A DNA stretch of 64,000 nucleotides from Candidatus Margulisiibacteriota bacterium (GCA_041658645.1 JBAZZV010000002.1:107907-171906); one strand, 5' to 3'. Shown: positions 11,306 to 29,524, numbered from the stretch's first letter. The notes: a model not told the origin generated them from the sequence alone. A program made the numbers and translations.

Positions 11306-11458
11306 GTTATAGGTTAACTGAACTCTCCCAGCTTGAATTTAATTTAAATTATATAGCAATTTGAATGGATTGTCATTTATCCCTAAAGGCAAGGATTTTG
11401 CTCCCATAGTTTTAATGCTAAAGTTGAAATTCAAGCGAGTTTGTATCGATAATAAATC

Positions 11459-12505
11459 ATGGTGACGTCCGCGATAAATAACAATATCTCCCTTTCCATC
11501 GGACCCTTGCCTGTTGCTCGCTTTTCTGCAGCAACAAAGAAAAAATTAGACACCGCTTTTTGGAATATGCGGTTGGAACAAGTACGCTCTTTTTTAAAAG
11601 AGGGAGGCTGGTCCGCTCTCTGTGAAAGACCACCTATTCTACTTGGTGAAGCGATCTCACGCATGAAAAAATCACCAACTGTTGGCAGAGTGGATCAAAT
11701 TGCAGACAGTAATGTTCTTGAAGCAATTCAGGAGGAACGGCATCAGATTTTGCGTTTGGGAAGGGAAATCAGTGTTTTTCGTTTTTTTGGAACTCAAACA
11801 TGGTTGCTGGTTGAGGGGGATGATGAAGGGGTTGATTTACCTGGACAGGGAGAATACAGTGATGTCGAAATACATAGCCATCCTTTTTCAGGCTATTGCT
11901 TGCCATCCATAGAAGATCTGACCAGTTGCGCCAACCTTTTTTTGCAGGGTCTGGGAATTAGCAGAAACTATATTCTTTCGCATGAAGGGATCGTTCAATA
12001 TGATATTAAAAATGCTATTCCTCATTTTGTTTGGCACTCTCCTTTTATTTTTTTCAATGACTGTTTGTTTGGGACAGATGATCCGCCACCCGAGCAAAAT
12101 GACTTCCGCTTGAAAACTTATCTCCAACACGGGATATCGATCCAGAGAATTGACTGGGACAGTTTTTGCCTGGAAGATTTAACCGACCAGAAAGAGGCGC
12201 ATTCTATTACAACGCTGCTTGCATCTTCCGGCCCGGCGGAGCGAGTAGCCGGAGTTAATCTTGTTGATGTTGTAAGCAATTATAATCATTATGGCGATTT
12301 TCAATTAGCGGTCAATATTTTGCTTGAATTCTCTTCTGACCCATCACATTTAGTGCAGCTAATAGCCTTGAGCAAAGTTAGCGATGCAGTCTATGCCATT
12401 GGAAGCAAAAGTGATATGGGACGCGTTATCAGTGCTTTTAAAGATTCCGAATTCGAAATTGTTAGAAAAAAAATAAAAGTATTAAAGTTAGAGTTGGGCC
12501 TTTAA
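11459..12505 (+). CDS. Hypothetical protein with JAMM/MPN-like HSHP(x8)SxxD motif; low-GC accessory gene
   Basis: 348 aa; VEIHSHPFSGYCLPSIEDL resembles JAB/RadC metal site with one extra spacer residue; AT-rich codon usage differs from neighbours. Confidence 0.4.
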   Translation: MVTSAINNNISLSIGPLPVARFSAATKKKLDTAFWNMRLEQVRSFLKEGGWSALCERPPILLGEAISRMKKSPTVGRVDQIADSNVLEAIQEERHQILRLGREISVFRFFGTQTWLLVEGDDEGVDLPGQGEYSDVEIHSHPFSGYCLPSIEDLTSCANLFLQGLGISRNYILSHEGIVQYDIKNAIPHFVWHSPFIFFNDCLFGTDDPPPEQNDFRLKTYLQHGISIQRIDWDSFCLEDLTDQKEAHSITTLLASSGPAERVAGVNLVDVVSNYNHYGDFQLAVNILLEFSSDPSHLVQLIALSKVSDAVYAIGSKSDMGRVISAFKDSEFEIVRKKIKVLKLELGL

Positions 12506-12566
12506 AACAAGAATGAACTCCTCAACACTGAAGACACCCAACCAAAAAAAGCCGACGGCCAGAATC

Positions 12567-12644
12567 TCCCGATGGACATTATAAATATAATAATAATGAA
12601 ATCATCGGGATCCCGGCATTCCATATTATATATTGTCGTCGGGA
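12567..12644. repeat. Double-hairpin repeat element, copy A, embedded in a T-loop of a tRNA-Thr-like remnant
   Basis: TCCCGATG...CATCGGGA and TCCCGGC...GTCGGGA inverted repeats with AT-rich loops; flanked by tcgccagTTC and GATtctggccgtcggcttttttt, matching the tRNA-Thr T-arm and acceptor 3' end. Confidence 0.6.
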
Positions 12645-12672
12645 GAACTGGCGATCAGTTGCCCCAATAAAA

Positions 12673-12745
12673 AGCCGACGGCCAGGATCGAACTGGCGAC
12701 CTGCTGTTTACGAAACAGCTGCTCTACCAACTGAGCTACGTCGGC
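12673..12745 (-). tRNA. tRNA-Thr (anticodon CGT)
   Basis: Cloverleaf read by eye: GCCGACG acceptor, GCTC/GAGC D-stem, anticodon loop TTCGTAA, T-loop TTCGATC. Confidence 0.85.
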
Positions 12746-12768
12746 CCAAACTGAGTCCCGATGCAAAA

Positions 12769-12841
12769 AGCCGGCGGAGGGGATCGAACCCACGACCTGT
12801 GGTTTACAAAACCACTGCTCTACCAACTGAGCTACACCGGC
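12769..12841 (-). tRNA. tRNA-Thr (anticodon TGT)
   Basis: Cloverleaf read by eye: GCCGGTG acceptor, anticodon loop TTTGTAA, T-loop TTCGATC. Confidence 0.85.
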
Positions 12842-12844
12842 GAC

Positions 12845-14344
12845 CTACCAACGGCTCATCAGTAAACGGGCGTTATCGTTGCCGGGCAAAACCTGGCGGG
12901 TATCAACATCGACCAGCCAGTCAAAGGTCTCGAGCGCGCCGCCGCTCTGTTCACAAACATATTTGACGACAGACTTTTCACCCTTTTTACGGATCTGCCA
13001 ACCTTTGGCCACGACCGGCGTGCCGAGCGATTTGGTCAGAGCGACGACCGACTTGATGGCCGATTCGAGGCGGGTCCCCTTGCTGGTCTTCTGGCCCAGG
13101 ACAATCTTCAGCGAATCATCCGCGACCAGGGCCGAGACTGCTGTCCGGCCTTGTCCCCTGGCAACCGGCCCCGTGACGGCTGGCTTGACGGCCGTCCCCG
13201 CTATTCTCTCTCGCCCGAGGAAAGAGTGCAGAGCAACGCTCTCCGGATCGTTCTTCAGCCCTTCTTTCCAGGCGTCACGCGCTTCTTCCCTGAGACCAAG
13301 GGAGCGCAAACTTTCACCCAGCCTGACATAGGCCTGGGTCAGGTCCGGCCGCAGATCGACCGCCTGGCGGTAATTGGCCACCGCATCGTGGTAGCGGCGG
13401 AAGCGGAATGAATAGTTCCCCTGATCATAAAATTTCTGGGCAATGTCGTTAGCCGTTTTCCGGCTCTCCATATCCCGGTCATCGAGGCGGAGTGATTCTC
13501 CCAGCGCCTCGCCGGCAGCCGACAGGTTATTCTGGGCCAGGTAGGTCTTGGCCAGCCAGAGATGAGCTTTAGCCTGGCGGGCATCGACGTTAACCACGTT
13601 CTTGAAGTGTTTGACGGCGGCCGCGTAATTCTGGCCGTTGTAGGCCTGGCAGCCGAGCCGGAAAAGATCTTCGGTCGGCTCTTTGACGTTGGCCGAGGAG
13701 ACCCAGCCTTCCTTACCGTCGTCAAAGACGACCTTATACCACAGCATCTTGGAGAGCGCGGTCAGGACCTGTCCCTGGTAAAGGACCCGTCGTGAGTCGC
13801 TGGAGACCGCCGAGCAGGTGGCAACCACGGTCAGCGGCCAGCCAGCATTGTCAAAAGCTTCTCCCTGGGAAACATTACTTGCCTTTGATGCGGTCGCTGA
13901 CGGCCGTTCCACGAAAAACTCGACCGTCCGCTGGATGGCACCGCGTTCACCAGCGATCTGATAGCGCACCACGTGGACACCCGCGCCAACCCTGGCCGGC
14001 AGCTTATAGGCACTGCTCCAAGCGACGCCATCCTTGCTGGAAAGCTCGATCCGCTCCGAGCTAAAATCAAAGAGCGCCTTGACCGATTTGACCTGGTTGG
14101 CCGTCCTGACGCCGAGCGAAATGACCCGTTCTTCCCTAACCGTCTTGGGATAGACCAGCGCTTCGACCCAAACCAGCGAGAGCCCCTCACCCGGCTGGGT
14201 CGGACCCGCCTTGAGGCTCATGTTCTCCCGGTCAATTACCGCATCGGCCGCCCAGACCCTGCCTGCCGGCAGGCAGGCGAATCCGGCCAGCAACATGATA
14301 ACCGCCGGCAAAACTAAGCTTCTTTTCATTTTTTTCCTCCTCAT
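12845..14344 (-). CDS. Secreted TPR-repeat protein
   Basis: 499 aa; signal peptide; several TPR-like AxxYxxA/LG repeats in the C-terminal half. Confidence 0.5.
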   Translation of the reverse strand: MRRKKMKRSLVLPAVIMLLAGFACLPAGRVWAADAVIDRENMSLKAGPTQPGEGLSLVWVEALVYPKTVREERVISLGVRTANQVKSVKALFDFSSERIELSSKDGVAWSSAYKLPARVGAGVHVVRYQIAGERGAIQRTVEFFVERPSATASKASNVSQGEAFDNAGWPLTVVATCSAVSSDSRRVLYQGQVLTALSKMLWYKVVFDDGKEGWVSSANVKEPTEDLFRLGCQAYNGQNYAAAVKHFKNVVNVDARQAKAHLWLAKTYLAQNNLSAAGEALGESLRLDDRDMESRKTANDIAQKFYDQGNYSFRFRRYHDAVANYRQAVDLRPDLTQAYVRLGESLRSLGLREEARDAWKEGLKNDPESVALHSFLGRERIAGTAVKPAVTGPVARGQGRTAVSALVADDSLKIVLGQKTSKGTRLESAIKSVVALTKSLGTPVVAKGWQIRKKGEKSVVKYVCEQSGGALETFDWLVDVDTRQVLPGNDNARLLMSRW

Positions 14345-14985
14345 CAGTATGTCAGCAGCAGGTTGTCAAGCGCCACCTCGACCTCGCCCTGCGGTTTATC
14401 CGTTAATAAGGTCAACTGGATCTTGAGCAAGCCGCCCGAACCGTCCTTATGGTCGGGGTTCCAGACCCCATCCCCATGGCCGGGATTGTCCAGCCGAAAG
14501 GCCGAGAACGGAATGGAGATCCTGGTCCAACCCGGACCGAGGATTGGTACCTCGGCGACCCACTTATCATCACTCGTCGCCAGCCAATCGCGCGCCGGGT
14601 CCTGTTCCAGCACCAGGTTGCCGTTATCGTCATCAAAGAGCTCGATCTTGATCCTCCCGGCGTGGCCGTTACCGTAAGCGTCCATCTGCAGCCGGGTGAA
14701 CGGCGTCCCGTCAGCAAAGATATCGGTGCCAATGCCGCCGGCAAACCAGTTGGTCGCCCGCCCTTTCAGCTGGAGCGAGTAGTCGCCGCATGATTCGGCA
14801 ATGACGTCCCGGACCGTTCCTTCGAGCGAAGGGTTTTTGTCAACCAGTAATTTGACCTCGCCGAACTTATACCACTTGTCCGGTTTACCGGACTCGAAAT
14901 TGTCGATCAAATAAAAAGAGAACTCGGCCCGAGCCACCACCAGCAAGCCCAGACAGAATAAAGAGACTAAGAGAATTCGCTTCAT
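14344..14985 (-). CDS. Secreted hypothetical protein
   Basis: 213 aa with N-terminal signal peptide; no recognisable motif. Confidence 0.4.
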   Translation of the reverse strand: MKRILLVSLFCLGLLVVARAEFSFYLIDNFESGKPDKWYKFGEVKLLVDKNPSLEGTVRDVIAESCGDYSLQLKGRATNWFAGGIGTDIFADGTPFTRLQMDAYGNGHAGRIKIELFDDDNGNLVLEQDPARDWLATSDDKWVAEVPILGPGWTRISIPFSAFRLDNPGHGDGVWNPDHKDGSGGLLKIQLTLLTDKPQGEVEVALDNLLLTY

Positions 14986-15521
14986 TTTGTTTTGCGCGAA
15001 ACTCTGCCTGGTTTTCGGACTACCCCCTTTATGATTTTTCCGCCTGAGGCGGAATTTTTAGGCGCGGCCGGCTTGGCCCGCCCCTTCGCCTTGACCAACG
15101 GGACAGAAGCTTTCAAGACCAGCTCCTCTTTTTGCGCCCGGAGCTTTTCACATTCTTTGCTTAAGACCAGATTGCTTTTTTCCAGGACATCGCGGGTCTG
15201 TTTCAGGTCGTTCAGGCAGCCGTTGACCCCCTGGACTTGGCCGGAGAGTTCGGTATTCTGCAGTGAGAGCTGCTGGTTATCGATCTTGAGCTGGTCGACG
15301 ATGAAAGCCAGCTTCTCGAGCTTCTCTTCCTGGCCCCGGTCGGCCAAGACAGGGGCCGGGCCAATGACCGAAGACAAACCTCGGCTCCGCCGGCGCCAGG
15401 CCAGCGACATCGCGGCCGCCAGGCAAGCGACCAGGCCGACCGCCAGGAAAAACGGGTTAAGGTGTACGGCTGGCGCGGCGTTGGTCGTGCCGGCTAAAAC
15501 CTGGGTCAAGCTTGGGTTCAT
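14982..15521 (-). CDS. Membrane-anchored coiled-coil protein (start trimmed to MNPSLTQ; longer ORF is tRNA-Phe antisense)
   Basis: TM helix followed by a long coiled-coil (QLKIDNQQLSLQNTELSGQ...) and a basic tail. Confidence 0.4.
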   Translation of the reverse strand: MNPSLTQVLAGTTNAAPAVHLNPFFLAVGLVACLAAAMSLAWRRRSRGLSSVIGPAPVLADRGQEEKLEKLAFIVDQLKIDNQQLSLQNTELSGQVQGVNGCLNDLKQTRDVLEKSNLVLSKECEKLRAQKEELVLKASVPLVKAKGRAKPAAPKNSASGGKIIKGVVRKPGRVSRKTK

Positions 15522-15574
15522 CTTTTTCTCCTTCCCTCTGATCTCCAGTATAAGGTAAGCCAGCTGGCAAAAAA

Positions 15575-15647
15575 TGGCGCAGGCCGGAATTGAACCGGCG
15601 ACGCCTGCCTTTTCAGGGCAGCGCTCTACCAACTGAGCTACCGCGCC
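15575..15647 (-). tRNA. tRNA-Phe (anticodon GAA)
   Basis: GGCGCGG acceptor, anticodon loop CTGAAAA, T-loop TTCAATT. Confidence 0.85.
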
Positions 15648-15653
15648 ATTTTT

Positions 15654-15726
15654 TGACCCGCGTGCGACTCGAACGCACCACCACTTGCTTAAAAGGCAAG
15701 TGCTCTACCTGATGAGCTAGCGGGTC
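15654..15726 (-). tRNA. tRNA-Lys (anticodon TTT)
   Basis: GACCCGC acceptor, anticodon loop CTTTTAA, T-loop TTCGAGT. Confidence 0.85.
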
Positions 15727-15767
15727 GCGCTGACTTTATTATAACATAAACGGGCCCGGCCGGATTT

Positions 15768-15852
15768 TCCCGACGGACATTATTAATTTAAAATAATGGA
15801 AACGTCGGGATCCCGCCGCTCCGCTATATTAAATATAATAGTGAGGGCGGGA
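15768..15852. repeat. Double-hairpin repeat element, copy B; left boundary of AT-rich island
   Basis: TCCCGACG..CGTCGGGA | TCCCGCCG..GGCGGGA; flanked by tRNA-Asp-like fragments (cgtgacaggc anticodon segment; aaatccggccgggcccg T-loop/acceptor-like). Confidence 0.6.
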
Positions 15853-16025
15853 GAACACTCAGCATCTATCGTGACAGGCGACTCAAACCCCTCTTGAAAT
15901 AAGTGTATCACGAAGGATAACCCTGTTTCAAGGTGGTTTGAAATGGCTTTAAAGCAGTTTGATTGTGTTTGTTAAAAGATTGTTTGAAGGATATTAAGAA
16001 ATTAATAATTATGCTTGAATAGGGC

Positions 16026-16793
16026 CTAACGGCCCATCTCTCTTTCGAAGCAAGCATCGCAGGGCGAGTCTTGTTTTTCCGCTTTGTCTTCTTTCATAAT
16101 GGCATACTTTGTGCCACATCTAGGGCATTCCAAGACAGTTGCCTTCTGATGACAAAAATAACAATCAGCCTCATCTACCTTACTATCCAGATTAACTAAA
16201 ATTGTTTCATTCAAACAATATGGGCATTCAAGCTCTGTATAGGATGAGCCTTCTTTCCCATAGGGCGTATCGTCCCCCATTCTCGACTTAGCTTTTTTGT
16301 CTCTTTCCTCATAAGAAAACACTAACTCTTCGATTTTCTTCCAGTCCGCATCGCTAACCTGGTCTTCTATTTCCACGCCCAGTTTCTCGCTTGAAAACAC
16401 ACAGATATAATTCAACGCCTTCCCCAATATCCACTCGGCATCTTCCTTGCTTAGATGCACCTCATAATGTTGTATGTTATTTCTTTCGATTCTCAGGAAT
16501 TTCAATTGATCTGCTTTGTCGTCATCTGTTAAATCGCATTCCCTCAAACGATTAAGTAGCTCTTTATAATCTACTGTGTGCGAGCCCGTGTGCACCGGTT
16601 TCTTATCCGTATAAATTAATTCCGGACTTATTCTACGAAGAGATTCCTTAAGGAGGAGCTCGACCCCCTGATAAACACTAAGGATGGCTTGCTTATAGTC
16701 AGATTCCGCGAAATGCTTAACGCCATGATTAATTGAGTCAACGCCATTCTCAAACAAATTAAGTTTTAACATACTTAGCAACCTATCAGACAA
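16026..16793 (-). CDS. Hypothetical protein with two C-terminal Zn-ribbons (CPYC..CYFC, CPRC..CDAC) and a possible HEPN-like Rx4H (RNNIQH)
   Basis: 255 aa; four CxxC pairs; AT-rich island gene. Confidence 0.4.
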   Translation of the reverse strand: MSDRLLSMLKLNLFENGVDSINHGVKHFAESDYKQAILSVYQGVELLLKESLRRISPELIYTDKKPVHTGSHTVDYKELLNRLRECDLTDDDKADQLKFLRIERNNIQHYEVHLSKEDAEWILGKALNYICVFSSEKLGVEIEDQVSDADWKKIEELVFSYEERDKKAKSRMGDDTPYGKEGSSYTELECPYCLNETILVNLDSKVDEADCYFCHQKATVLECPRCGTKYAIMKEDKAEKQDSPCDACFEREMGR

Positions 16794-16821
16794 TATTTTT
16801 GAGCGCTAAACCATACCTATT

Positions 16822-17037
16822 TTAATAAATCCTTTTTGCACCTTTTTTACCTGTATATGGATTAACATTCCCCTTTGTTGGCCAATTATCAATCTTAGTT
16901 CTATTTGGGAATGTCTTATAATGAGGAGCAATATAAGTCCCGCTCTTTTTAATATGCCCGCTAACACGGACACTTTTTGCAAATGAAGTAAAAGCCAAAA
17001 GAGAACAAATCAAAGCCATTAATACAAGCTTTTTCAT
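16822..17037 (-). CDS. Small secreted protein
   Basis: 71 aa; signal peptide followed by a basic Gly/Lys-rich mature peptide (NPYTGKKG). Confidence 0.35.
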   Translation of the reverse strand: MKKLVLMALICSLLAFTSFAKSVRVSGHIKKSGTYIAPHYKTFPNRTKIDNWPTKGNVNPYTGKKGAKRIY

Positions 17038-17051
17038 TCTATGTCTTCCTC

Positions 17052-17357
17052 CTATTTATTCGGGGCTATGGGCTTTATTATAAACAGAGATACAAAGAAT
17101 ATGACCACTGATATGAAATCAATAATAACCCATAACTCTTTATCTAAATATATTGGAAATATAGGATTAAACAATATAGCGAGAAGAGCAAACATCCAAA
17201 CAAAAACCCTCTTTTGTTGTTCATAAGATAAATAAGTATTATAAGCCGATGCTCCACAAATAAACCACCTTAAAAGGATATAATATCCGTATGGCATGCC
17301 TACCGGGACTGCAACTAATAACATAATTATAGCTAATATTGGCACTAAATAGTTCAT
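17052..17357 (-). CDS. Small integral membrane protein
   Basis: 101 aa, 3 predicted TM helices. Confidence 0.35.
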   Translation of the reverse strand: MNYLVPILAIIMLLVAVPVGMPYGYYILLRWFICGASAYNTYLSYEQQKRVFVWMFALLAILFNPIFPIYLDKELWVIIDFISVVIFFVSLFIIKPIAPNK

Positions 17358-17372
17358 TGGTCCCCTCCTTAC

Positions 17373-18218
17373 CTACTTGTTCCCCTCATTGCGAGACCCG
17401 CTATTGTTGGAAACCTTATTTAAAAGATAAATAAATATTCCAGACATAGCTATTCCACCCCACAAAGCTATGTCTTGTCTGTAAGAATGATAGTTCTCAT
17501 CGCTATAATAACCCCAATCATTAGGAAGAAAGAATAGCACTCGCTCAAGTCCAAACATAAACAATATAGTTAAGCCAATCCCGCATCCAACGATCAAAGC
17601 ATACTCGTTTAGATATTTGATTCCAAATAAAGGAATGCTAACCAGATCCCTCCCAACTAATTTATAAAATATATAAAGAATTGTCGACAAAAACAAATAA
17701 GCAACGAGAAGGACTAAATAGGTTCCAAGACATAACGACCCAAATAAGGTCTCTTTCCATAACATTAATGTAATAATAGGAATAGCAAGCAATACGAGTA
17801 TGGCAACCACTTCAAGTCTTTCTGATGCATTTTTGCCCATAATATATTTATCCATGAACCAAAAACACCAAAGAACGACGAAGAAGATAATATAACTAAT
17901 AGATACGGCCAATAAACCAATCGAAATAGCTAAGTCAGGGATTACGAAGACAAGGACAAGAAATACAACTGAGAGCGTAGTTCCCAATAATTTAAATAAC
18001 GGTATTTTCCAGTTTTCCACCCTTCCGCCCCAGGGCCACTGCCACAGCAACATATTAAAATATGGGAGGAAAGAGATTGCAGCAAGATTCTTATAAAAGC
18101 TCCCTTCAGTATAAGCCGCGACAACGCTACCCCCAAGCCCACCAACAAAAAATACAATTACTACAACCGATCGAATCAGTTCTTCAATATGGGAGATTAA
18201 GCTATTTTTGCTATTCAC
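17373..18218 (-). CDS. Integral membrane protein
   Basis: 281 aa, 7-8 TM helices, low GC. Confidence 0.4.
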   Translation of the reverse strand: MNSKNSLISHIEELIRSVVVIVFFVGGLGGSVVAAYTEGSFYKNLAAISFLPYFNMLLWQWPWGGRVENWKIPLFKLLGTTLSVVFLVLVFVIPDLAISIGLLAVSISYIIFFVVLWCFWFMDKYIMGKNASERLEVVAILVLLAIPIITLMLWKETLFGSLCLGTYLVLLVAYLFLSTILYIFYKLVGRDLVSIPLFGIKYLNEYALIVGCGIGLTILFMFGLERVLFFLPNDWGYYSDENYHSYRQDIALWGGIAMSGIFIYLLNKVSNNSGSRNEGNK

Positions 18219-18363
18219 TTATGGTTCCCCCTTCATGCACAAAAATGGCCCTATGCTACATAAATTATATGCCACTCTTGATAGGATTATACTATTCTAG
18301 TAATTCATACGCTACCTACCGATCTCGATAGGCATACTATGCGGATGGGCCATTCAAAATAAA

Positions 18364-18378
18364 TTGTTAGAAAACAGA
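18364..18378. promoter_or_regulatory. 15 nt motif TTGTTAGAAAACAGA, copy 1 (second copy 19691-19705)
   Basis: Exact 15-mer repeated in two intergenic regions of the island. Confidence 0.3.
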
Positions 18379-18487
18379 AATAAAAGAAGAAATGCCTTGA
18401 ATTTTCATTGCTCCATATCTATAATTCCAACATACTTGTTTTTGAAGAATTGGGAAAATGAATATTTATACAAAGGGAGTCTGAGAA

Positions 18488-18751
18488 ATGTTTTACAGTC
18501 TACACATATCATTTGGCGATGGGCATAAAGGGACATCAATAATCCTGCCCGATAAAGAAGTAGAGAGGATAAATGAACTCAGGCGAATTGCTAAAGAGAT
18601 CGAAATCCTCAGCGAAACGGGCTGGAAACATACTGAACCAATCGAACAAATACATATAAACGAGAATCAAACTCGTTGGGAAGTCATTCCAATAAGCCCC
18701 AATGAACTATCAATACTTAAAAAGAAAGTCGGAATAATCCTGAGTTCCTAG
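18488..18751 (+). CDS. Hypothetical small protein
   Basis: 87 aa ORF; only plus-strand ORF in the island. Confidence 0.3.
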   Translation: MFYSLHISFGDGHKGTSIILPDKEVERINELRRIAKEIEILSETGWKHTEPIEQIHINENQTRWEVIPISPNELSILKKKVGIILSS

Positions 18752-18769
18752 CATTCCCCCGATTGAGTG

Positions 18770-19489
18770 CTACCAAGTTGTATTATATAGGGATATTTTT
18801 ATAGTGTTATCTTCAAGTTGATTAAATGATGATATGCCATATTTAATTTTCAATTTTTTATTCTGATCGTCCGCGTCTGCGTATGCATCATAAGTCCAAT
18901 AAAACCAATTGGCAATATAAACTAATGCCCAAGTTCCGCTCGAATTATTAGTGCTGGTGCCGTAATAATTATAGGATTTTGCAGTCATCCCACTGTATGA
19001 AGCAATAGCAATAACCCAAGATCCTATTGCTTTCGGCCAATTCCCATTGACAACTTGACCACCCCCAATAATCAGAAAAGAAAGTAGCGCGGATATCCCC
19101 GGGTCTTTCTTTTCTGAGCTATATAAACTTAAATTTGACAACATTCTGTCGGAACTGCCCGAATAATATTGATTAGTTGATGGGGAATAGTTCTCATCAT
19201 CAACCATTATTGTCGTTAGCTCTCCGGATTTAATTACGACTAGCTTTTCATATTTGGTCTTCAGTGATTTTGTTTCAACAGCCCTAATTGAATGGGACCC
19301 AGCAACAACTTCTTCGAGAAAAAGAGGGGTTTCTCCTGACTTTTCTTCATCTACAAACACGTAGCATGCTGGCCCCTTAGATAACACCTTTAATTGCCCA
19401 TATTGCATATCCAGTGCTAAAGCTGCGCCTGAAAAGATTATATTTAAAGCTAATATTATAAGGACAAAAAGACAAATTGTTTTTTTCAT
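18770..19489 (-). CDS. Secreted/membrane hypothetical protein (start set at MKKTICLF signal peptide)
   Basis: Signal peptide, beta-rich N-domain, two C-terminal TM segments. Confidence 0.4.
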   Translation of the reverse strand: MKKTICLFVLIILALNIIFSGAALALDMQYGQLKVLSKGPACYVFVDEEKSGETPLFLEEVVAGSHSIRAVETKSLKTKYEKLVVIKSGELTTIMVDDENYSPSTNQYYSGSSDRMLSNLSLYSSEKKDPGISALLSFLIIGGGQVVNGNWPKAIGSWVIAIASYSGMTAKSYNYYGTSTNNSSGTWALVYIANWFYWTYDAYADADDQNKKLKIKYGISSFNQLEDNTIKISLYNTTW

Positions 19490-19690
19490 ATTGGCACCTC
19501 CTAATAAATACCACCAACTCACTCAACTACATCCTGATTATACTTCAATAGAAAGCCTGGTCAAGTTTATTATTTATCCTCTTTCTCCCCATCCTTTGCC
19601 ACGCATTTTTGCCCTTACGTTTTCCCTGTCTCTGTTTAAACCAACAAGCTTTCCCCAGCAAACAACTATTCTAAATTAATTGTTAGAAGA

Positions 19691-19705
19691 TTGTTAGAAA
19701 ACAGA
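19691..19705. promoter_or_regulatory. 15 nt motif TTGTTAGAAAACAGA, copy 2, preceded by a partial repeat
   Basis: Identical to 18364-18378. Confidence 0.3.
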
Positions 19706-20208
19706 CAAGTGAGAGAATCAACGAAAAGACACAAGCCGTTAATTTTCCCTTGTTAATACGTTTAACACTCGATCCTTCGGGCATTAGTCAGAAGTGTGGC
19801 TTATCGCTGCAGAGGTCCTTGACAACTAAATATAGAGGTCAACTATTTTATCGAAATCTTTTTTGGAGAGGGATTTTTGCATATTTATTTTAACCTTTCG
19901 TTTCCCGCTCTCAAATATTAATGGAAAAACAAAAGGACAATTTTTGCTAACCATACGATACTCTATGTATAAATCAAAAAGGAATTTGATTATCTCTGCA
20001 ATATTGAACACAAACATTATGGTTTGCCATTCAGGGCAACCACCCATCCCCGGCATAATCCCCGCCCTGCCGTGAACGGCAACTATTCTTACTTTCTTTT
20101 TAGAAACAGGTTTTTCTTGAATGGCCTTCTTGTCAATGCTTTTTATTATTTTTTGACATCGAAGGGGTTATCCCCGGGAATAGTAAGTTTAATAACCTTC
20201 TTTTTCAT

Positions 20209-20412
20209 TTAAATGTTTTTATCACGAAAGGAATAGAAGAGAATACCCAAAATAATTGTAAATGGTAAAAATACAATAAATAAAAACATAAGGAGTTTTA
20301 TTAATAGGCCCTCTAACGAATAAACGTTTGAATTCCATAGTCCAAATAAAATAAAAAAGAATGAAGATGAAATACCTAATATCCACAATATAACCGTTTG
20401 CTTTTTATTCAT
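20209..20412 (-). CDS. Small membrane protein
   Basis: 67 aa, two TM helices. Confidence 0.3.
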   Translation of the reverse strand: MNKKQTVILWILGISSSFFFILFGLWNSNVYSLEGLLIKLLMFLFIVFLPFTIILGILFYSFRDKNI

Positions 20413-20547
20413 ATTATGCCATCCCTATTTCAAAAGTTCTTCAATCCGAACCCTAAGTACTTTAGCGATAATCTGAATGGTTGACAAATTGAATTATACA
20501 CCCAAACAATAGTAATGCATAATAAAAGAAACTGGCCCAAAGGGATT

Positions 20548-20632
20548 TCCCCGACGGACATTAATATATAAATAATAGAAACGTCGGGATCCCGCCGTTC
20601 CACTATATCAAAATATATTAATGAGGGCGGGA
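20548..20632. repeat. Double-hairpin repeat element, copy C; right boundary of island, inserted in the T-loop of a partial tRNA-Asp duplicate
   Basis: Flanks ctgtcCcgcaggagaccgagggGTTC | element | AATccctttgggcc match tRNA-Asp from anticodon loop to acceptor 3' strand. Confidence 0.65.
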
Positions 20633-20735
20633 GAACCCCTCGGTCTCCTGCGGGACAGAACATACGAGAAGAAACTAAACTTGTTCTCCGTAGCCACGAG
20701 TCCCGACGAATAGTCGGGACGAGGGCGAAGGAGAA

Positions 20736-20811
20736 CGGGCCCGAAGGGATTTGAACCCTCGGTCTCCTGCGTGACAGGCAGGCGCGTTAAACCAGACTAC
20801 GCTACGGGCCC
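20736..20811 (-). tRNA. tRNA-Asp (anticodon GTC)
   Basis: GGGCCCG acceptor, anticodon loop CTGTCAC, T-loop TTCAAAT. Confidence 0.85.
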
Positions 20812-20939
20812 GCGCGAACCTCAACTTATAACCGATAACCGATAACTAATAACTTAGAAACTGTCACTTTATCAATTATCATTCAAAAAATTATTATACC
20901 AGCTAAAGGGGATGTTGGAAAGGTGTATTATGTAACTTT

Positions 20940-21284: not shown

Positions 21285-21377
21285 AATAAATAGTACTTAG
21301 TGTGAGTGTGCGTCTTGAGTCTTGAGCGTCGTCCGCTAACTACTAACTACTCACACTCACTCTCAAGACTTAATAAA

Positions 21378-21463
21378 CGGAGGGGGAGAGATTCGAACTC
21401 TCGCTACCTTACGGTACTAACGGTTTAGCAAACCGTCCCCTTGAACCACTTGGGTACCCCTCC
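21378..21463 (-). tRNA. tRNA-Ser (anticodon GCT)
   Basis: Long variable arm; GGAGGGG acceptor; anticodon loop TTGCTAA. Confidence 0.85.
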
Positions 21464-21524
21464 ATGCTCGCTATCGCTCGAAATCCTAAATCCTAAATTC
21501 TAAATCCGAAATATAAGGTCGAAA

Positions 21525-21611: not shown

Positions 21612-21716
21612 TCGCTCAACGAACGCTCACATTAACAATTTAGTTTATTTTTTGCAAGCTTCACTTATTATAAGTTGTGTTAGCTTGCTTTTCAAGCCCG
21701 CCTTAGGAATAATCGC

Positions 21717-21746
21717 TTGACTGCCGCGCAAGGACGCAGGTATAAT
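21717..21746 (+). promoter_or_regulatory. Sigma70-like promoter upstream of the LexA-methyltransferase gene (TTGACT-N18-TATAAT)
   Basis: Near-consensus -35 and -10 hexamers about 50 nt upstream of the start. Confidence 0.45.
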
Positions 21747-21797
21747 TAGGTCAATCGAAAATGAATCGAAAGTCAAGCGAAGGTAAGTGAAGGTCAA

Positions 21798-23252
21798 ATG
21801 ATCACCAAGAGGCAAAAACAGACCCTGGACTTTATAAAAAACCATCAACTTAGGAGAGGGTATGCCCCTTCCCTTGAGGAGATCAAGGATCATCTTAAAC
21901 TTTCTTCCGTATCAACGGCACATCATCATGTTAAAGCATTGGAAGCGCTTGGATTGCTAAAAAAAAAGGAAAACCAGCCACGCGCAATTAGTCTTTATGA
22001 TAATGAACAGTTAATTAGTATGCCTTTGCTTGGAACCATTGCCGCCGGTGAACCCATTGAAGCTATTCAGGAAAAAGAAATAATTGCCATTCCCAAATCA
22101 AAATTAACTCAAAATGGTGAGTTTTACGCGCTACGTGTTTCTGGCAATAGCATGACAGATGAAAACATTAATGATGGCGATATCATTATAGTAAAAAGCC
22201 AGTCAACGGCCAATAATGGGGAAAAAGTTGTTGCCTTAATAGACAATCAAGCAGTAACCCTAAAAAAGCTGTACAAAGAAAACAAAAACATTCGACTTCA
22301 ACCAGCTAACTCAACTATGCCCCCAATGATATTCTCCCCACAAAGGGTAAATATTCAAGGAGTCGTTGTTGAGATCGTTAAGTCCGATAAACATTCGTCG
22401 CCAGGCATGAGATATTCACCTGAAAACAATTTAGCTGCTCCCCAACATCAAAGTATTAACAATTTCCTGAACAGAGTACTTCAAGGCGATTGCCTTGAAG
22501 TAATGAAAACCATGCCTCCGAAATCAATAAATATGGTTCTGTGTGATCTCCCTTATGGAAACACCCAAAACAAATGGGACAGCATTATCCCCCTTGATAA
22601 ACTATGGACTGAATATGAAAGAATAATTAAAGATAATGGTGTTATAGTTCTTACCTCACAAGGGTTGTTTACCGCCCAATTAATCCTATCCAATCCAAGG
22701 TTATTTAAGTATAAGATTATTTGGGTAAAATCTAAGCCAACTAATTTCCTTAATGCAAAGAAACAACCGCTTCGGAGGCACGAGGATATATGCATATTTT
22801 ACAAAAACCAACCCGATTATAATCCGCAAATGACTCCCGGAGAGCCTTATAACAAGGGGTTCAGGAAAAATCAGCTGACAGGCTGTTATGGGGATTTTAA
22901 GCCTGTTAAAGTTAAAAGTGATGGCCAGCGGTATCCCACAGATGTTGTTTATTTCAAAACGGCAGAGAGTGAAGGCGTTGTTCACCATCCTACTCAAAAA
23001 CCAGTCGAGCTAGGCAGATACCTAATTAAAACATTTACAAAACCAGGAGACATTATCCTCGACAATACTTGCGGCAGTGGGAGTTTTCTTGTTTCAGCCG
23101 TTCTTGAGGATCGATTGTTTATTGGTATCGAAAAAAATGAGGAAGTATTTTTGCACAAAAAGCATCATATTGACTATATTGAAATCTGCAACAAAAGAAT
23201 TAAAGAAGCAAAAAGGAAGGCCGCTGTCGAAAACAGCAGATTGTTCGCCTAA
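21798..23252 (+). CDS. Fusion protein: full-length LexA repressor (wHTH + S24 peptidase) fused to beta-class N6-adenine/N4-cytosine DNA methyltransferase
   Basis: N-terminus has the LexA cleavage site AAGEP, catalytic SGNSM and TLKKL; C-terminus has GDCLEVMKTMPPKSINMVLCDLPYG (CcrM-like DPPY region), HPTQKP and DNTCGSGS (FxGxG). Confidence 0.75.
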   Translation: MITKRQKQTLDFIKNHQLRRGYAPSLEEIKDHLKLSSVSTAHHHVKALEALGLLKKKENQPRAISLYDNEQLISMPLLGTIAAGEPIEAIQEKEIIAIPKSKLTQNGEFYALRVSGNSMTDENINDGDIIIVKSQSTANNGEKVVALIDNQAVTLKKLYKENKNIRLQPANSTMPPMIFSPQRVNIQGVVVEIVKSDKHSSPGMRYSPENNLAAPQHQSINNFLNRVLQGDCLEVMKTMPPKSINMVLCDLPYGNTQNKWDSIIPLDKLWTEYERIIKDNGVIVLTSQGLFTAQLILSNPRLFKYKIIWVKSKPTNFLNAKKQPLRRHEDICIFYKNQPDYNPQMTPGEPYNKGFRKNQLTGCYGDFKPVKVKSDGQRYPTDVVYFKTAESEGVVHHPTQKPVELGRYLIKTFTKPGDIILDNTCGSGSFLVSAVLEDRLFIGIEKNEEVFLHKKHHIDYIEICNKRIKEAKRKAAVENSRLFA

Positions 23253-24172
23253 ATACCCGTGTAAGGTTCTTTTTTCAGTATTTGGGCAGCCCTTTCTAAT
23301 TCTTTGTCTGTTATTAAACCTTCCTCTTTAAACCATTCTAAAAGATGAAAATATTGATTTGAGCTTAAAATCGGCTTAATTTCATTAGTTATATTTGCTT
23401 TTTTCTTAATATATTCCAAGTGTTTATTGTTCAATATGCCTCGACCAATCAAGTCGTAGGTAATACGTATCGCATCAACTGAAGTGAGATTCAAATCCCC
23501 TTTTCGAGCTATATCAGCATTGACATCAGATTGGTCTATTTTGAGCAACTCATCTAAGCTTTGTAAGCCATTCAAATTTTTATTATAAAATTCAATATCA
23601 TGCTTTTGATAAGTAAACCACGTCTTGCCTTGTTCGGTTAATGAGCCTCTAGGTAAATACACGCCTTCTCGTTTAACCCTTTCTTTCGAAACCCAACCAC
23701 ATATATATAATATCCATTTTTGTCTTTTTGTCCCAGGTAGTTTTCTTGTTTTTTTACTAGGGGTTTTAAGGTGTGTCATTAAGTATATATCTACATCTAA
23801 TCGATCATCGTTCATTTGCCTTGGCCAAAAATTATGTTTTGCTTCTCTTGGAATATCATCGTTGCTTAAATATTCCTCTTTAAATGGCAGCGTGCCGCCT
23901 CTGCATTTAACATCAACCTTGATTCCGGTTGGAAGCAGAAAATCATAACCTAAAGAAGGCCGATTGCTTGGATTAATTTCAGGCATTCCTAAATATTTCC
24001 GTACAACTATTTCCGCCAAAGCACCAAACCCCTGCTGTTCTTCACTCCCTCTTTCTGCTCCGGTTGTATTCGGATTAGCGGAAACGAACTGAAATGCCTT
24101 TTGGCGCAAATCAAACCCAGCAGAATCAATCAGTTTGATGGGGATTGGTTTTGGTTTGCTGTATTGATACAT
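23249..24172 (-). CDS. Putative restriction endonuclease-like PD-(D/E)xK nuclease, convergent with and overlapping the methyltransferase gene by 4 nt
   Basis: 307 aa; SLGYDFLLPTGIKVDVKC fits D-x(n)-D-x-K; low GC; no other similarity visible by eye. Confidence 0.35.
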   Translation of the reverse strand: MYQYSKPKPIPIKLIDSAGFDLRQKAFQFVSANPNTTGAERGSEEQQGFGALAEIVVRKYLGMPEINPSNRPSLGYDFLLPTGIKVDVKCRGGTLPFKEEYLSNDDIPREAKHNFWPRQMNDDRLDVDIYLMTHLKTPSKKTRKLPGTKRQKWILYICGWVSKERVKREGVYLPRGSLTEQGKTWFTYQKHDIEFYNKNLNGLQSLDELLKIDQSDVNADIARKGDLNLTSVDAIRITYDLIGRGILNNKHLEYIKKKANITNEIKPILSSNQYFHLLEWFKEEGLITDKELERAAQILKKEPYTGI

Positions 24173-24205
24173 ATCGCCCGCCTTTGAAGGGAAACTTAAT
24201 CCGCG

Positions 24206-25858
24206 CTATTCTTCCCCGCCCGAGATCAGCTTTTCGATCTGTTTTTTCGCAAAAGGGGCCTTAGAGATTATCTCAGCCGCTTCCGCCCGGGTCAAGTTGA
24301 GTTTCGGGCCGAACGATTGCCCGGACAAGTACTCGAATAGTCCGGCCGTTTTGGTCGCGGCTACGGCCGGCGAGGCCCAATGGTCGACAGGCATGTCCGG
24401 GAACGGCCGCGCCGCCAGCTTCGGTTTCTGATAAAGCCCCGCCCAACGGGCCAAAATCATCGCCCCTTCCGCCCGGGTAACGCGATTCTGCGGCCGGAAG
24501 GCCTTATCGGGATAACCGTTGATATATTTTCTCTCCACGGCAAAGCTGATGTAGGGGGCTTCAAAACTTTGCAGCGGCACGTCCTTGAACCTGACCCGGA
24601 CGTCAGTGCCGACGGTAAAGCCTTTTGCCTTGACCAGCAGGACCGCCAGCTCGCCCCGGGTCAGCTCCTGGGTCGGCCGGAAAGTGTTGTCGCCATAACC
24701 GCCCATGATCCCCAGGGTCGACAGATACTCAATCGGTTTTTTAGCCCAATAGCCATCAGGCACGTCGCTAAAGGACTTCAACTTCGGTTTGGCAACGATC
24801 TCCGGCTGGGGGATGGTCGAGCGCCGGTTCTTCTTCTCGGCAGCGGCCTTCTCCCGCAGTTTTTCCCGGTCGGTCCCGCGGTAGCCTAGCGAGAAGAAAT
24901 GCGTGGCGTTCTCTGACAGCTCGCCGAACTGGTGATAGGCGTAGTCAAAAGTAAAACCGCCAAAAGCGAAACCGACGCCGGCCGTCAGGTTATTATCGAC
25001 GCCGACGCCGCTCTCGGTCGCCCGCGGTTTCTGGTCAAGGCCAAGGCGGAGGGCTAGCGTCTCGATCGGCCAGAATTCGGAACCGAGATGAAAAACCCCG
25101 GGCCGGCCGACCGCCTGGCTCTTTTCATAATCACACATCAGATCTAGATTGCTCCAGAGGGCGTAATGCCCGCCGGCCCGCGTGATCAAGGGGATCCCTT
25201 CGATCACCCCGTTTTTCTGCCAGGTAAACTTCCCGCCAAAAGTGGCCGGCAGGAAATTTTGCAGAGTTAAACCAAGGCTTAATTTTGAATTAGTTTCCCA
25301 GAGGACCCCGAGATCGGCGTCCATCCCGCTCCCGTTCGCGTTCTGCATCGCCGAGCCGCCGCCGGAAAAACCTTGCGAGAGGAGCTTCAAGGTCGCTCCC
25401 AGAGAGACATTCTGCCCTGCCCCATTGCGCAGGAAGCGGCTTAACTTGGACCCATATGAAAAGAGGACCAGGCTGGAACCATAATCGGTTGAATCATATT
25501 GCTGCGCTTCCAGGCTCGGCCCGGAGCCAACCAGGCGCGTCAACGGAATGGCCGTCACCGCCGCGTTAATGTAGCCGACCCCGAACTTGCCGAGCGGTGA
25601 TTCGTTGGCCGCGCCGATCAGGACGTAATTGATGTCGCCCAGCAGCGCCCCGCTCATGCTGGTCAAGTTGAGGTTCTTGTTGCGGGCCAGCCCGGCTGGA
25701 TTGGTAAAAATAGCATTGGCGTCATCGGCCAAGCCAACATAAGCGCGCCCCAGGCCAAGCGGCCGGGCGCCGACACCGATCTCGCTCAAGTCAAGCGCGG
25801 CCATGGCTGTCGAACCGCATAAAACGACGGCTAACAGCGGGAAAAAAAGCTGTTTCAT
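24206..25858 (-). CDS. Outer-membrane beta-barrel-like protein with three C-terminal S-layer homology (SLH) domains
   Basis: Signal peptide; beta-rich N-domain (GFTFDYAYH); three SLH repeats (FSDVPDGYWA.., FKDVPLQSFEAPYI.., FPDMPVDHWASPAV..). Confidence 0.55.
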   Translation of the reverse strand: MKQLFFPLLAVVLCGSTAMAALDLSEIGVGARPLGLGRAYVGLADDANAIFTNPAGLARNKNLNLTSMSGALLGDINYVLIGAANESPLGKFGVGYINAAVTAIPLTRLVGSGPSLEAQQYDSTDYGSSLVLFSYGSKLSRFLRNGAGQNVSLGATLKLLSQGFSGGGSAMQNANGSGMDADLGVLWETNSKLSLGLTLQNFLPATFGGKFTWQKNGVIEGIPLITRAGGHYALWSNLDLMCDYEKSQAVGRPGVFHLGSEFWPIETLALRLGLDQKPRATESGVGVDNNLTAGVGFAFGGFTFDYAYHQFGELSENATHFFSLGYRGTDREKLREKAAAEKKNRRSTIPQPEIVAKPKLKSFSDVPDGYWAKKPIEYLSTLGIMGGYGDNTFRPTQELTRGELAVLLVKAKGFTVGTDVRVRFKDVPLQSFEAPYISFAVERKYINGYPDKAFRPQNRVTRAEGAMILARWAGLYQKPKLAARPFPDMPVDHWASPAVAATKTAGLFEYLSGQSFGPKLNLTRAEAAEIISKAPFAKKQIEKLISGGEE

Positions 25859-25928
25859 GCTTGCGTTTATTATCGCCGATAACATCAAACCTGTCAACTT
25901 CGATTAATTATGATAAAATGAAATAATA

Positions 25929-29038: not shown

Positions 29039-29041
29039 GCC

Positions 29042-29524
29042 TTAGGCCTTCAAATATCCCAAGAAATTGAAGAATCCTTTTCCTGGTATAACAAAATCCG
29101 CTCCCACCCCCATCATCTCTTTGTTCTTCTTACCGCTGGCTGAATTGGCTGCAATATAACCCTTATATTTCAAATCTCTTAATTCCTTTACTAATTCCGG
29201 GCCCGAGGTGTTGAACATCTGCCCATCCATAACAACCAATTCCGGATTGTGTTCAGCAACGAGTTTAAGTCCCTGCTCTCTTATTGGGAGACCCGGATCA
29301 ACCGCTACAACTTTAACATTGTAATCTCTCAGCAGCTGTTGCGCACTTTTCAAATAATTGGGGTCATCATCAACCAGAAGGATCGTCTTGATGACTTGTG
29401 GCCTGCCCGGTTTAACAAATTCCGCCTTTAGCTGCACGCCGACTGCCGGCGAATGACCTGCCGCCATAAAACATCGGTAATCAAATAGTTTTCTGTAAGA
29501 AGACACGGGAAATTTAACGTCCAC
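29042..29524 (-). CDS. Response-regulator receiver-domain protein (stand-alone, CheY-like)
   Basis: LLVDDD acidic pocket, VVMDGQM phospho-acceptor region, conserved Lys near the C-terminus. Confidence 0.45.
   Translation of the reverse strand: MDVKFPVSSYRKLFDYRCFMAAGHSPAVGVQLKAEFVKPGRPQVIKTILLVDDDPNYLKSAQQLLRDYNVKVVAVDPGLPIREQGLKLVAEHNPELVVMDGQMFNTSGPELVKELRDLKYKGYIAANSASGKKNKEMMGVGADFVIPGKGFFNFLGYLKA

Follow-up and report, generated by a model that had tools for sequence, protein, structure and literature searches.

A double-hairpin element at the T-loop of displaced tRNA gene fragments in Margulisbacteria and Saganbacteria, and its relation to a variable tRNA-Asp island

tRNA genes are classic landing sites of genomic islands, and the evolution of the scars left there has rarely been examined. 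Such islands are placed by tyrosine integrases, which reportedly have tRNA genes as their sites, and several may accrete in tandem at one tRNA gene. Small palindromic repeats are mobilised in another way. The repetitive extragenic palindromic (REP) doublets, bacterial interspersed mosaic elements (BIMEs) and REPINs depend on RAYT transposases, which are IS200/IS605-like Y1 enzymes, and REPINs are non-autonomous inverted palindromic doublets whose hairpin is under selection and whose insertion leaves no target duplication. Here we describe a double-hairpin element (EL) found in 64,000 nucleotides of Candidatus Margulisiibacteriota bacterium DNA (GCA_041658645.1 JBAZZV010000002.1:107907-171906; hereafter the window, with positions counted from its first letter). 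The candidate phylum, Margulisbacteria, is the sister group of Cyanobacteria. Two EL copies, B and C, stand on either side of a low-GC block between tRNA-Lys and tRNA-Asp. They are copies of a small non-autonomous mobile element that is specific to Margulisbacteria and Saganbacteria. The family has a defined structure, insertion position and clade distribution and is confined to pseudo-copies of tRNA genes, and the island between B and C varies among relatives. The EL family appears not to have been described before, and its single-nucleotide preference within the T-loop appears unusual.

EL resembles REPINs in consisting of two inverted imperfect palindromic units, the second hairpin (hp2) being an inverted copy of the first (hp1), and a covariance model of EL matches both strands. 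It differs in its feet, which are TCCCG/CGGGA and lack the GTAG/CTAC tetranucleotide, and in its low copy number (three in 64 kb), with all copies in tRNA fragments, whereas REPINs are generic extragenic repeats. No RAYT/Y1 transposase was found among the proteins scanned from the window and the related loci. With tRNA-gene islands the locus shares an intact tRNA gene, cargo of foreign composition including a defence-type gene, a direct repeat of the tRNA 3' part, serial fragments and absence from related genomes. In contrast to such islands, it has no integrase, each tRNA repeat is interrupted by the 85-nt element, and in many sister loci the fragment lies just 10-75 nt away from the intact tRNA.

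Double-hairpin elements (DHEs) were described in the fungal mitochondrial genomes of Allomyces and Schizosaccharomyces (Paquin et al. 2000, as summarised in PMC10085805 and PMC2800124). According to these summaries, DHEs and EL are alike in being two adjacent hairpins that form short discrete units, apparently mobile between close relatives, in leaving no flanking target duplication and in having sites in intergenic regions and structural-RNA genes; the mobilising mechanism and enzyme are not established for either. DHEs are GC-rich elements of AT-rich organelle genomes, whereas EL is bacterial and chromosomal. The two have no evident shared sequence, a distinction drawn without direct sequence comparison, and the summaries report for DHEs neither a single tRNA T-loop position nor confinement to pseudo-tRNAs. 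EL would work like a palindromic non-autonomous element, for which the fungal mitochondrial DHEs and the REPIN/BIME doublets seem to be the nearest analogues. The IS91 family also makes no target duplication. Its members target 5'-GTTC/CTTG next to an oriIS with two imperfect subterminal palindromes, the terIS cleavage site is GTTC in three members, and frequent one-ended events co-mobilise flanking DNA (PMC13181058). EL recalls these transposons in lacking a target-site duplication (TSD), in inserting next to GTTC/CTTG, in its two imperfect palindromes and in a possible co-mobilisation of flanks to GTTC-like ends (PMC13181058). However, EL is symmetric and occurs in both orientations, some of its sites are neither GTTC nor CTTG, and among the 466 GTTC and 21 GGTTCRA sites of the window ELs occupy only tRNA-derived ones. 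No HUH Y2 transposase was detected in the window or the loci examined.

Thirty EL copies were aligned. EL is a quasi-palindrome of two inverted, imperfect hairpins of ~42 nt joined at GGGA|TCCC, each of the form TCCCG-NNN-(G/C)ACATTA..AT-rich loop..TAATGRAAT-N'N'N'-CGGGA. In each hairpin the foot (TCCCG/CGGGA) is constant, a triplet varies with covariation, the asymmetric internal loop (GA opposite RAAT) and a CATTA/TAATG segment are conserved, and the AT-rich tip is variable. Compensatory double changes were found in both stems (columns 7/41, n=10; columns 53/89, n=13; columns 54/88, n=5). Because the stems of the two hairpins differ within one copy, selection appears to act on two hairpins and not on one long hairpin. 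The terminal inverted repeats, TCCCGNNG...CNNCGGGA, belong to the quasi-palindromic whole, and the same ends (TCCCG...CGGGA) recur in more than 12 tRNA species. Insertion is flush, without target duplication, and the flanks supply all 7 nt of the T-loop. Copies in different tRNAs can be ~90% identical, for example those of L108 (tRNA-Asp) and L112. Across 134 loci and the window, the hairpin unit was never found singly and never flanked a gene or a longer element, occurring always as an adjacent pair; a long version with cargo between the two hairpins was sought in the same set and not found. Rfam, at gathering and permissive thresholds, matched only seven tRNAs, with nothing for EL and no intron match, and the EL hairpins have no U-tract of their own. 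Orientation is ill-defined, as the halves are near-equivalent: by the GGACATTA half, ~9 copies stand against 12-15. A flip/flop orientation was dropped as a polarity marker, since the halves also exchange sequence.

A covariance model trained on 25 family members and run on the window found just three full EL copies: A (12567-12644, a 78-nt double hairpin, 84.7 bits, E=4e-19), B (15768-15852, 85 nt, folding into two hairpins, 86.3 bits, E=1.6e-19) and C (20549-20632, 84 nt, 81.5 bits, E=2.7e-18). B and C are direct repeats and mutual nearest relatives among the 30 copies. An initial annotation of the window had already placed two copies there in one orientation, and this is confirmed (E ~1e-18 to 1e-19 in the covariance model). 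Its figure of ~90% identity is corrected to 86% (74 of 86 aligned columns), and the start that it gave for C, 20548, moves to 20549, since t20548 is a T-loop base outside the element.

All three copies split tRNA 3' fragments exactly between C56 and R57 of the T-loop in the tRNA sense; for B and C the element lies exactly between C56 and A57. In the tRNA sense (minus strand), C reads CTGTCCCGCAGGAGACCGAGGGGTTC|EL|AAATCCCTTTGGGCCAG, which is tRNA-Asp nucleotides 32-73 with four differences. Its upstream part, X'c (20633-20658, minus strand), holds nucleotides 32-56, and its downstream part, Y'c (20532-20548, minus strand), is a displaced tRNA-Asp 3' end. B reads GCCTGTCACG..CTGAGTGTTC|EL|AAATCCGGCCGGGCCCG. 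Here the tRNA-Asp-derived segment X'b lies at 15853-15880 and the displaced 3' end Y'b at 15751-15767 (both minus strand), the latter followed by a trailer common to L083, a 3.5 kb metagenome contig with flanks 94-97% identical to the window. The tRNA-Asp origin of the flanks, proposed in the initial annotation, is thus confirmed: they are duplicated 3' parts from the anticodon loop to the acceptor end (nucleotides ~30/32-73 in fragments C and B). X'b cannot pair with Y'b (GAGTG against CCGGC), and this broken outer stem argues against a selected three-way-junction RNA. A reads CAACTGATCGCCAGTTC|EL|GATTCTGGCCGTCGGCT and sits in a tRNA-Thr fragment located 11 nt past the intact tRNA-Thr(cgt). 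Its X' (12645-12661, minus strand) ends in the T-loop GTTC and is the orthologue of fragment (d) of L137, a relative reached via proteins (flank protein 83% identical) that carries six ELs in 6.2 kb. Its Y' (12550-12566, minus strand), made of the T-loop 3' half, the T-stem 3' strand and the acceptor 3' strand, matches the tRNA-Thr(tgt) allele of L137. None of the fragments of A, B and C has the tRNA 5' half.

Degraded copies may also be present, as read tentatively from the sequence. A relic at 20701-20735, missed by the initial annotation, abuts the 3' end of the intact tRNA-Asp and reads ..CCCG TTC|TCCTTCGCCCTCG-TCCCGACTATTCGTCGGGA in the tRNA sense, with a weak covariance-model match (E=5.6-8.2). 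Between the two intact tRNA-Thr genes (12747-12768, minus strand), a putative EL foot (GCATCGGGA) is followed by a piece of tRNA-Thr nucleotides 11-19; at the orthologous site of L137 a full EL is present, GCCGACGTAG|EL|CTCAGTTGA.

Beyond the window, one genome per species was scanned with an exact pattern, which located EL in 14 loci, each in a metagenome-assembled genome of Margulisiibacteriota, WOR-1 or Saganbacteria. A metagenome scan gave 16 further true ELs among 120 stretches (L015-L134) that matched its loose pattern. Five loci with a gene for a GIY-YIG nuclease, reached via protein homology, all carry ELs. Two scans of viral contigs with EL patterns gave no matches, so there is no evidence for X'-EL-Y' as a phage attP. 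About 30 independent insertions were collected, ~90% of them in non-functional tRNA copies beside the intact cognate tRNA. T-loop position 56|57 accounts for at least 21 of the ~30 independent sites, in fragments of tRNA-Asp, Thr, Ser (three isoacceptors), Ile, Arg, Val, Leu, Asn, Gly, Pro and Phe. Further sites lie in the D-loop at 18|19 (Pro, after CTTG), 16|17 (Pro) and 20|21 (Asp), in the D-stem at 10|11 and 24|25 (Thr) and in the anticodon stem at 39|40 (Asp), and three are outside tRNA (L006, L008, L013). The preceding bases are GTTC at ~21 sites, CTTG at one (L034a) and GTTT, CACG, AGAG, GTAG or CCAG at the others.

The tRNA copies that bear EL are all dispensable ones with an intact cognate gene alongside, in one of two arrangements. 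In the 3' type, the intact tRNA is followed by a spacer of 10-75 nt or by kilobase-scale cargo, then X'-EL-Y' and the native trailer; the short spacing, without an island, is the usual one. In the 5' type, native upstream DNA is followed by a tRNA 5' part or full tRNA with EL, often a GIY-YIG gene, a promoter and the intact tRNA. Several spacers are degenerate 5' parts of a formerly complete tRNA copy. Full-length EL-bearing tRNAs occur only in L108, with an intact copy alongside, and in L124, where the contig stops inside the fragment and a neighbouring intact copy is not visible. L105 and L141 each have two ELs in a single pseudo-tRNA-Asp, that is, in one duplication. The Saganbacterial loci share an HNH / pseudo-tRNA-Asp / GIY-YIG / tRNA-Asp arrangement with differing EL positions: T-loop in L108 and L124, D-loop in L011 and L105, and both 39|40 and 56|57 in L140, L141 and L143. 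Fragments free of EL exist in L137 (fragment (c)), L066 and L011, and small cargoes between the intact tRNA and the EL-bearing fragment are also found in L001, L014 and L083.

Two observations concern the tRNA fragments themselves. Downstream of tRNA-Pro(ggg), L144 (2832-3000) has two tandem units of a 34-nt trailer plus ATCGTGGGTTC; in the first, EL and part of Y' are missing (GGTTC|TACCCCGA), and the second has kept EL, a pattern that either a deletion or unequal recombination could have left. Among close relatives, tRNA-Ser(gct), the tRNA-Asp fragments and both tRNA-Thr genes differ in the T-arm only, by compensatory pairs (window 21377-21464 versus L083:655-742; window B versus L083:2436-2452; L137:3590-4025), and the T-arms of Thr(tgt) and Thr(cgt) are swapped between genomes, which suggests that tRNA 3' modules are often replaced.

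The window is identical in sequence to contig k141_528702 (74.8 kb) of ENA assembly ERZ27247322, and its proteins carry the label 'Candidatus Margulisiibacteriota bacterium' at NCBI. The host DNA has a GC content of 54-58%, and the low-GC interval at 15.9-24.2 kb holds a minus-strand tRNA cluster, in the tRNA sense Ser(tga), Ser(gct), Asp, Lys, Phe, three genes, then Thr(tgt) and Thr(cgt). Within this cluster, the intact tRNA-Lys(ttt) (15654-15726, minus strand) is the conserved host boundary on the B side, and the intact tRNA-Asp(gtc) (20736-20812, minus strand; T-arm GAGGG/CCCTT) lies 103 nt away from copy C. The B-to-C block of 4.65 kb (15881-20531) has a GC content of 0.364, compared with 0.584 in the left flank and 0.543 in host DNA at 24206-30000, a reference taken beyond the adjacent low-GC zone of tRNA genes and a restriction-modification (R-M)-like block. 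The compositional contrast proposed initially therefore holds. In addition, the low-GC zone reaches 24.2 kb as separate insertions, which the initial annotation had not noted.

The block is variable among relatives. L083 holds an orthologue of B, with both flanks matching, ~65 nt of island-side sequence in common and hp1 98% identical, and it has neither copy C nor the 4.7 kb cargo. Its interval of ~1 kb from tRNA-Asp to tRNA-Lys consists of ~0.8 kb of different cargo, with a gene for an unrelated membrane protein of 126 aa, and the B fragment. All that the two cargoes have in common is 60 nt at their tRNA-proximal end, left over from an XRE-type gene (L083 1525-1583 aligned with window 20470-20410). 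L083 also has an extra EL-bearing fragment after tRNA-Ser(gct) that is absent from the window. In the Saganbacterial locus L011, tRNA-Asp is followed by 24 nt, X'-EL-Y', 75 nt, a bare 3' remnant and tRNA-Lys, 265 nt in total, and L140 has unrelated permease genes and no fragment between tRNA-Asp and tRNA-Lys. These differences indicate that the cargo is variable, that B is older than the cargo or outlasts its replacement, and that C was added later. The island thus has both properties looked for in a tRNA island, foreign composition (GC 0.364 versus 0.54-0.58) and absence from relatives. B is a mosaic relative to its L083 orthologue: hp2 has been replaced (64% identical), and in Y' only the T-stem 3' strand has changed, to the Saganbacterial allele. 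As a separate observation, the contig L136 (Logan SRR8449812, corresponding to window 12697-15922), from an independent assembly of the same strain, breaks ~40 nt inside the island edge by B, consistent with strain heterogeneity or repeat-induced assembly breaks at the B boundary.

The initial annotation had likened B and C to attL/attR of an element that targeted tRNA-Asp. Part of this stands: the tRNA scars are of the integration type, and the block is inserted relative to other genomes. The 85-nt repeats as att sites do not. That reading would have B and C as the ends of one integrative element that entered at an EL/T-loop site of tRNA-Asp and has since lost its integrase. It draws on the direct repeats being mutual nearest neighbours at 86%, on their tRNA-Asp-derived flanks, on the low-GC cargo and on the absence of the island elsewhere. 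However, L083 keeps B with the same flanks and the ~65 nt of island-side sequence, lacks C and has other cargo, and therefore B and C are not att sites of the window island, nor do they delimit it. ELs also occur in ~20 other tRNA fragments, mostly 10-75 nt from an intact tRNA, without any island. They are dispersed irrespective of island boundaries, the very outcome that the initial annotation had named as speaking against a tie to the island borders. Moreover, scans of the window open reading frames (ORFs) found no integrase, and in the 134 loci and the window the hairpin unit is never single at the ends of a longer element. We regard this account as highly improbable. The initial annotation had itself objected that the intact tRNA-Asp lies outside C, yet serial insertion predicts exactly such a position. 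Its other objection was a crossover inside the T-loop, which is reportedly a normal sublocation for tRNA-targeting integrases. Duplicated 3' parts such as those of tRNA-Asp remain as scars when incoming DNA integrates into a tRNA gene and makes the gene whole again. B and C mark such scars on either side of the cargo and are not the cargo's insertion sites; the cargo is variable foreign DNA at a hotspot of insertion, tRNA-Asp.

We consider it somewhat better than an even chance that EL inserts on its own into tRNA-gene sequence and that only insertions in redundant copies survive. EL would then move as a discrete unit with exact ends and without target duplication, entering almost only tRNA-gene sequence and mostly right after the GGTTC of the T-loop (56|57). 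Insertion into the sole working tRNA gene would be lethal, so that surviving copies would be found in dispensable, displaced 3' or 5' parts beside an intact gene. Transposition may proceed via single-stranded hairpin DNA or via repair of a nuclease-induced break. At tRNA-Asp, foreign DNA would have entered at least twice, each time with a replacement tRNA 3' part, in an order of events that we infer. The older event would have left fragment B by tRNA-Lys and introduced cargo that now amounts to 4.65 kb of low-GC genes, one of them a candidate for defence. The later one would have displaced the then-functional 3' end as fragment C and left the 75-nt spacer with an EL relic. Each displaced tRNA-Asp fragment would thus carry a T-loop EL. 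B and C exchange sequence, and recombination between these direct repeats could delete the island. The 85-bp near-perfect palindrome may itself be prone to breakage, which would fit the patchy B/C conversion and the cargo turnover beside ELs. The two ELs per pseudo-tRNA-Asp in L105 and L141, the differing Saganbacterial positions and the EL-free fragments show that EL insertion and duplication are separable.

Several observations weigh against insertion of EL on its own. In the window and L137, the only two samples not chosen for EL content, EL is on 3 of 3 and 5 of 6 displaced fragments, respectively; with such near-total occupancy, secondary colonisation must be very efficient, or EL helps to make the duplications. 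The non-tRNA sites L006, L008 and L013 have an intact target copy ~10 nt away from the interrupted target. The hp2 type common to B and C is missing from the L083 orthologue of B, and the two copies are therefore not evolving independently. Neither a transposase nor an integrase nor a HUH enzyme was detected in the window or in the loci examined, so that mobility of EL is deduced from its distribution only, and among orthologous sites there was none at which EL alone was present in one genome and missing in another.

The occupancy also speaks for EL-driven capture. Here EL would not be a late coloniser. It would be the active end of a mobile block (EL, the adjacent tRNA part and any cargo) that is copied after GTTC in the T-loop of a cognate tRNA, with an intact tRNA regenerated beside the disrupted copy, and B and C would have been made by the same events as the arrival of the cargo. 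The route would be one-ended rolling-circle transposition of the IS91 type or break-induced copying after cleavage by a small GIY-YIG nuclease. For the former speak the IS91 parallels and EL abutting GTTC at ~21 sites and CTTG in L034a, although GTTC alone cannot explain the target specificity, no HUH transposase was seen in the window or loci, and read on the bottom strand the majority 3'-type arrangement gives non-constant tetranucleotides. For the latter speaks the position of EL 0-140 nt upstream of a GIY-YIG gene, followed by a promoter and the intact tRNA, in 9 of 10 independent loci, five of these having been retrieved by protein homology alone. The GIY-YIG proteins are 79-115 aa long with the catalytic domain only, and their genes lie directly downstream of EL-bearing pseudo-tRNAs, before the intact tRNA (Asp, Pro), at L011:2742-3032, L105:1785-2033, L108:7008-7250 and L034:271-522, and in the same setting at L140:2501-2761, L141:2501-2755, L143:3524-4677 and L144:2501-2746. 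L143 has three tandem EL/GIY-YIG units, in two of which a truncated EL arm abuts the ATG, and in L144 two [Y-34 nt-X'] units stand in tandem. SegB, a free-standing GIY-YIG homing endonuclease of phage tRNA gene clusters, is tRNA-associated in the account given in PMC13096335 and drives segmental amplification of a tRNA gene. The relatives of the window resemble this in having a GIY-YIG gene among tRNA genes together with tandem duplication of tRNA segments; they differ in that the proteins here are short and chromosomal, with none in the window, and the portion of PMC13096335 concerned with SegB describes no hairpin element. Against capture, the two ELs in one duplication (L105, L141) show that EL can insert with no further duplication, GIY-YIG cassettes and fragments are likewise known free of EL (L066, where the gene stands beside a tRNA-Leu 5' fragment, and L137(c)), and the window lacks a GIY-YIG gene. 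The adjacency may be indirect, the cassettes themselves creating pseudo-tRNAs, and the geometry alone is no evidence, as any tandem duplication parses as such a block. We hold capture to be unlikely, though it deserves serious weight. The same low credence is given to its fuller form, in which EL and a small single-domain GIY-YIG nuclease would be a new bacterial mobile system for the universally conserved elbow-coding positions of tRNA genes (T-loop 56|57 and D-loop), acting by break-induced or rolling-circle copying, always rebuilding an intact tRNA and seeding tRNA-linked islands. The double hairpin would then be the recognition and cleavage structure, and the pseudo-tRNAs products and not pre-existing landing pads.

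A further account takes EL as a structural feature of the host, namely a palindromic site that is fragile or recombines often, a signal for processing or termination retained downstream of tRNA genes, or an intervening sequence in a tRNA-like RNA that would be removed or act at the RNA level. The conserved hairpins with covariation and conserved internal-loop sequence would suit this, as would the frequent position downstream of tRNA genes, the patchy gene conversion and cargo turnover next to ELs, and sites 56|57 and 18|19, which we take to flank the G19:C56 elbow pair of the folded tRNA. In contrast, the tRNA copies that host EL are truncated or degenerate and unable to give tRNA, the outer stem is broken in B, EL positions, number and presence vary among close relatives, ELs themselves decay to relics, and there is neither an Rfam match nor a U-tract belonging to the hairpins. 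We find this account even less credible, by a shade, than the att-site one. Retro-duplication of an EL-containing pre-tRNA fits a duplicated tRNA-Phe unit of L137 that ends in a U-tract; on the other hand, the promoter-containing duplications of L108 and L141 are DNA-level, and no reverse transcriptase was seen.

Other candidates were set aside. Recombination between two ELs at the central GGGATCCC, inserting a [hp-cargo-hp] unit, is ruled out by L083, which shares X'b and the ~65 nt of island-side sequence. A serine-integrase-type 2-bp crossover, TSD-type transposition and k-turn or hammerhead motifs were rejected on sequence grounds. EL has the terminal inverted repeats of a miniature inverted-repeat transposable element (MITE) but no TSD, and no related autonomous element with the same ends was found in the 134 loci and the window. 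An integron attC/cassette does not match two hairpins without a GTTRRRY core pair, cargo genes on both strands and no IntI. A tRNA intron (group I or bulge-helix-bulge) is inconsistent with the missing tRNA 5' half in A, B and C and with the lack of an Rfam intron match. As for the homing unit of a type V-K CRISPR-associated transposon, tRNA sequence lies on both sides of EL, and the scanned ORFs contain no Cas/Tns domains.

The cargo consists of small membrane and secreted proteins plus a Zn-ribbon protein, as the initial annotation had described and the ORFs confirm. All genes named here are on the minus strand. A helical protein of 248-255 aa with C-terminal Zn-ribbons (16026-16772) is a candidate defence protein (PADLOC PDC-S64, E=1.6e-24; HEC-08, E=1e-8). 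It is followed by a 71-aa secreted protein (16822-17037; phrog_29674, a PHROG of unknown function, E=5e-22), a DUF6804 membrane protein (17052-17357; Pfam PF20619, E=8.6e-26), a 281-aa polytopic membrane protein without a family match (17373-18218) and a protein of 239 aa, exported or in the membrane, whose N-terminus is weakly PEGA-like (18770-19489). The C-terminal remnant of the XRE-type helix-turn-helix gene (..IIAKVLRVRIEELLK*) lies at 20425-20493. A homologue of the Zn-ribbon protein (68% identical) is found near a DUF6804-domain gene, with one gene between them, on an unrelated short contig, and the 183 nt available downstream of the pair there contain no EL. Pfam, PHROGs and PADLOC scans found no recombinase domain among the island ORFs, in agreement with the initial annotation as to the lack of an integrase, and Pfam scans found no integrase or transposase in the ORFs of all low-GC zones of the window. 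The island is best described as a decayed, defence-flavoured block without mobility genes of its own.

Other low-GC DNA lies nearby. Between tRNA-Ser(gct) and tRNA-Asp is a 23S-rRNA intervening-sequence/Avd-like four-helix-bundle gene (PF05635; 20940-21284, minus strand), a family that adjoins ELs in two other loci (L083:966-1310 and L009:2861-3208) and in whose place Saganbacteria have an HNH gene. Upstream of tRNA-Ser(tga), a separate low-GC block (0.38; 21612-24205) holds a LexA/S24-peptidase-N6/N4 DNA methylase fusion (21798-23252, plus strand) and a convergent 307-aa ORF without a family match (23249-24172, minus strand). It is likely an R-M system and is absent from the close relative L083. 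After EL copy A, a 1.2 kb low-GC block (0.40; 11306-12549) has a single 348-aa ORF without a family match (11459-12505, plus strand); the block is absent from L011 and L137, where holA directly follows the tRNA-Thr cluster. Elsewhere in the window, a second hairpin repeat family (CCCTCTCCC-AGA-GGGAGAGGG), with ~20 nt of common upstream sequence, occurs as two pairs (28348-28377 and 28433-28462; 49418-49447 and 49468-49497), and a 300-nt direct repeat (35427-35726 and 38624-38923; 92% identical, 3.2 kb apart) overlaps paralogous ORFs.

What is new is a phylum-wide small hairpin element that inserts with single-nucleotide precision in the T-loop and is a mark of essentially all leftover tRNA fragments of the DNA sampled. 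ELs also break assemblies, and the pseudo-tRNA fragments that they create are ignored by annotation pipelines. If EL is merely a coloniser, it would be a new, highly target-specific non-autonomous element and a natural reporter of past integrations and of T-arm swapping between strains. If EL together with GIY-YIG makes the duplications, it would represent a self-repairing mechanism of insertion into essential genes and a route by which defence-type cargo builds up next to tRNAs.

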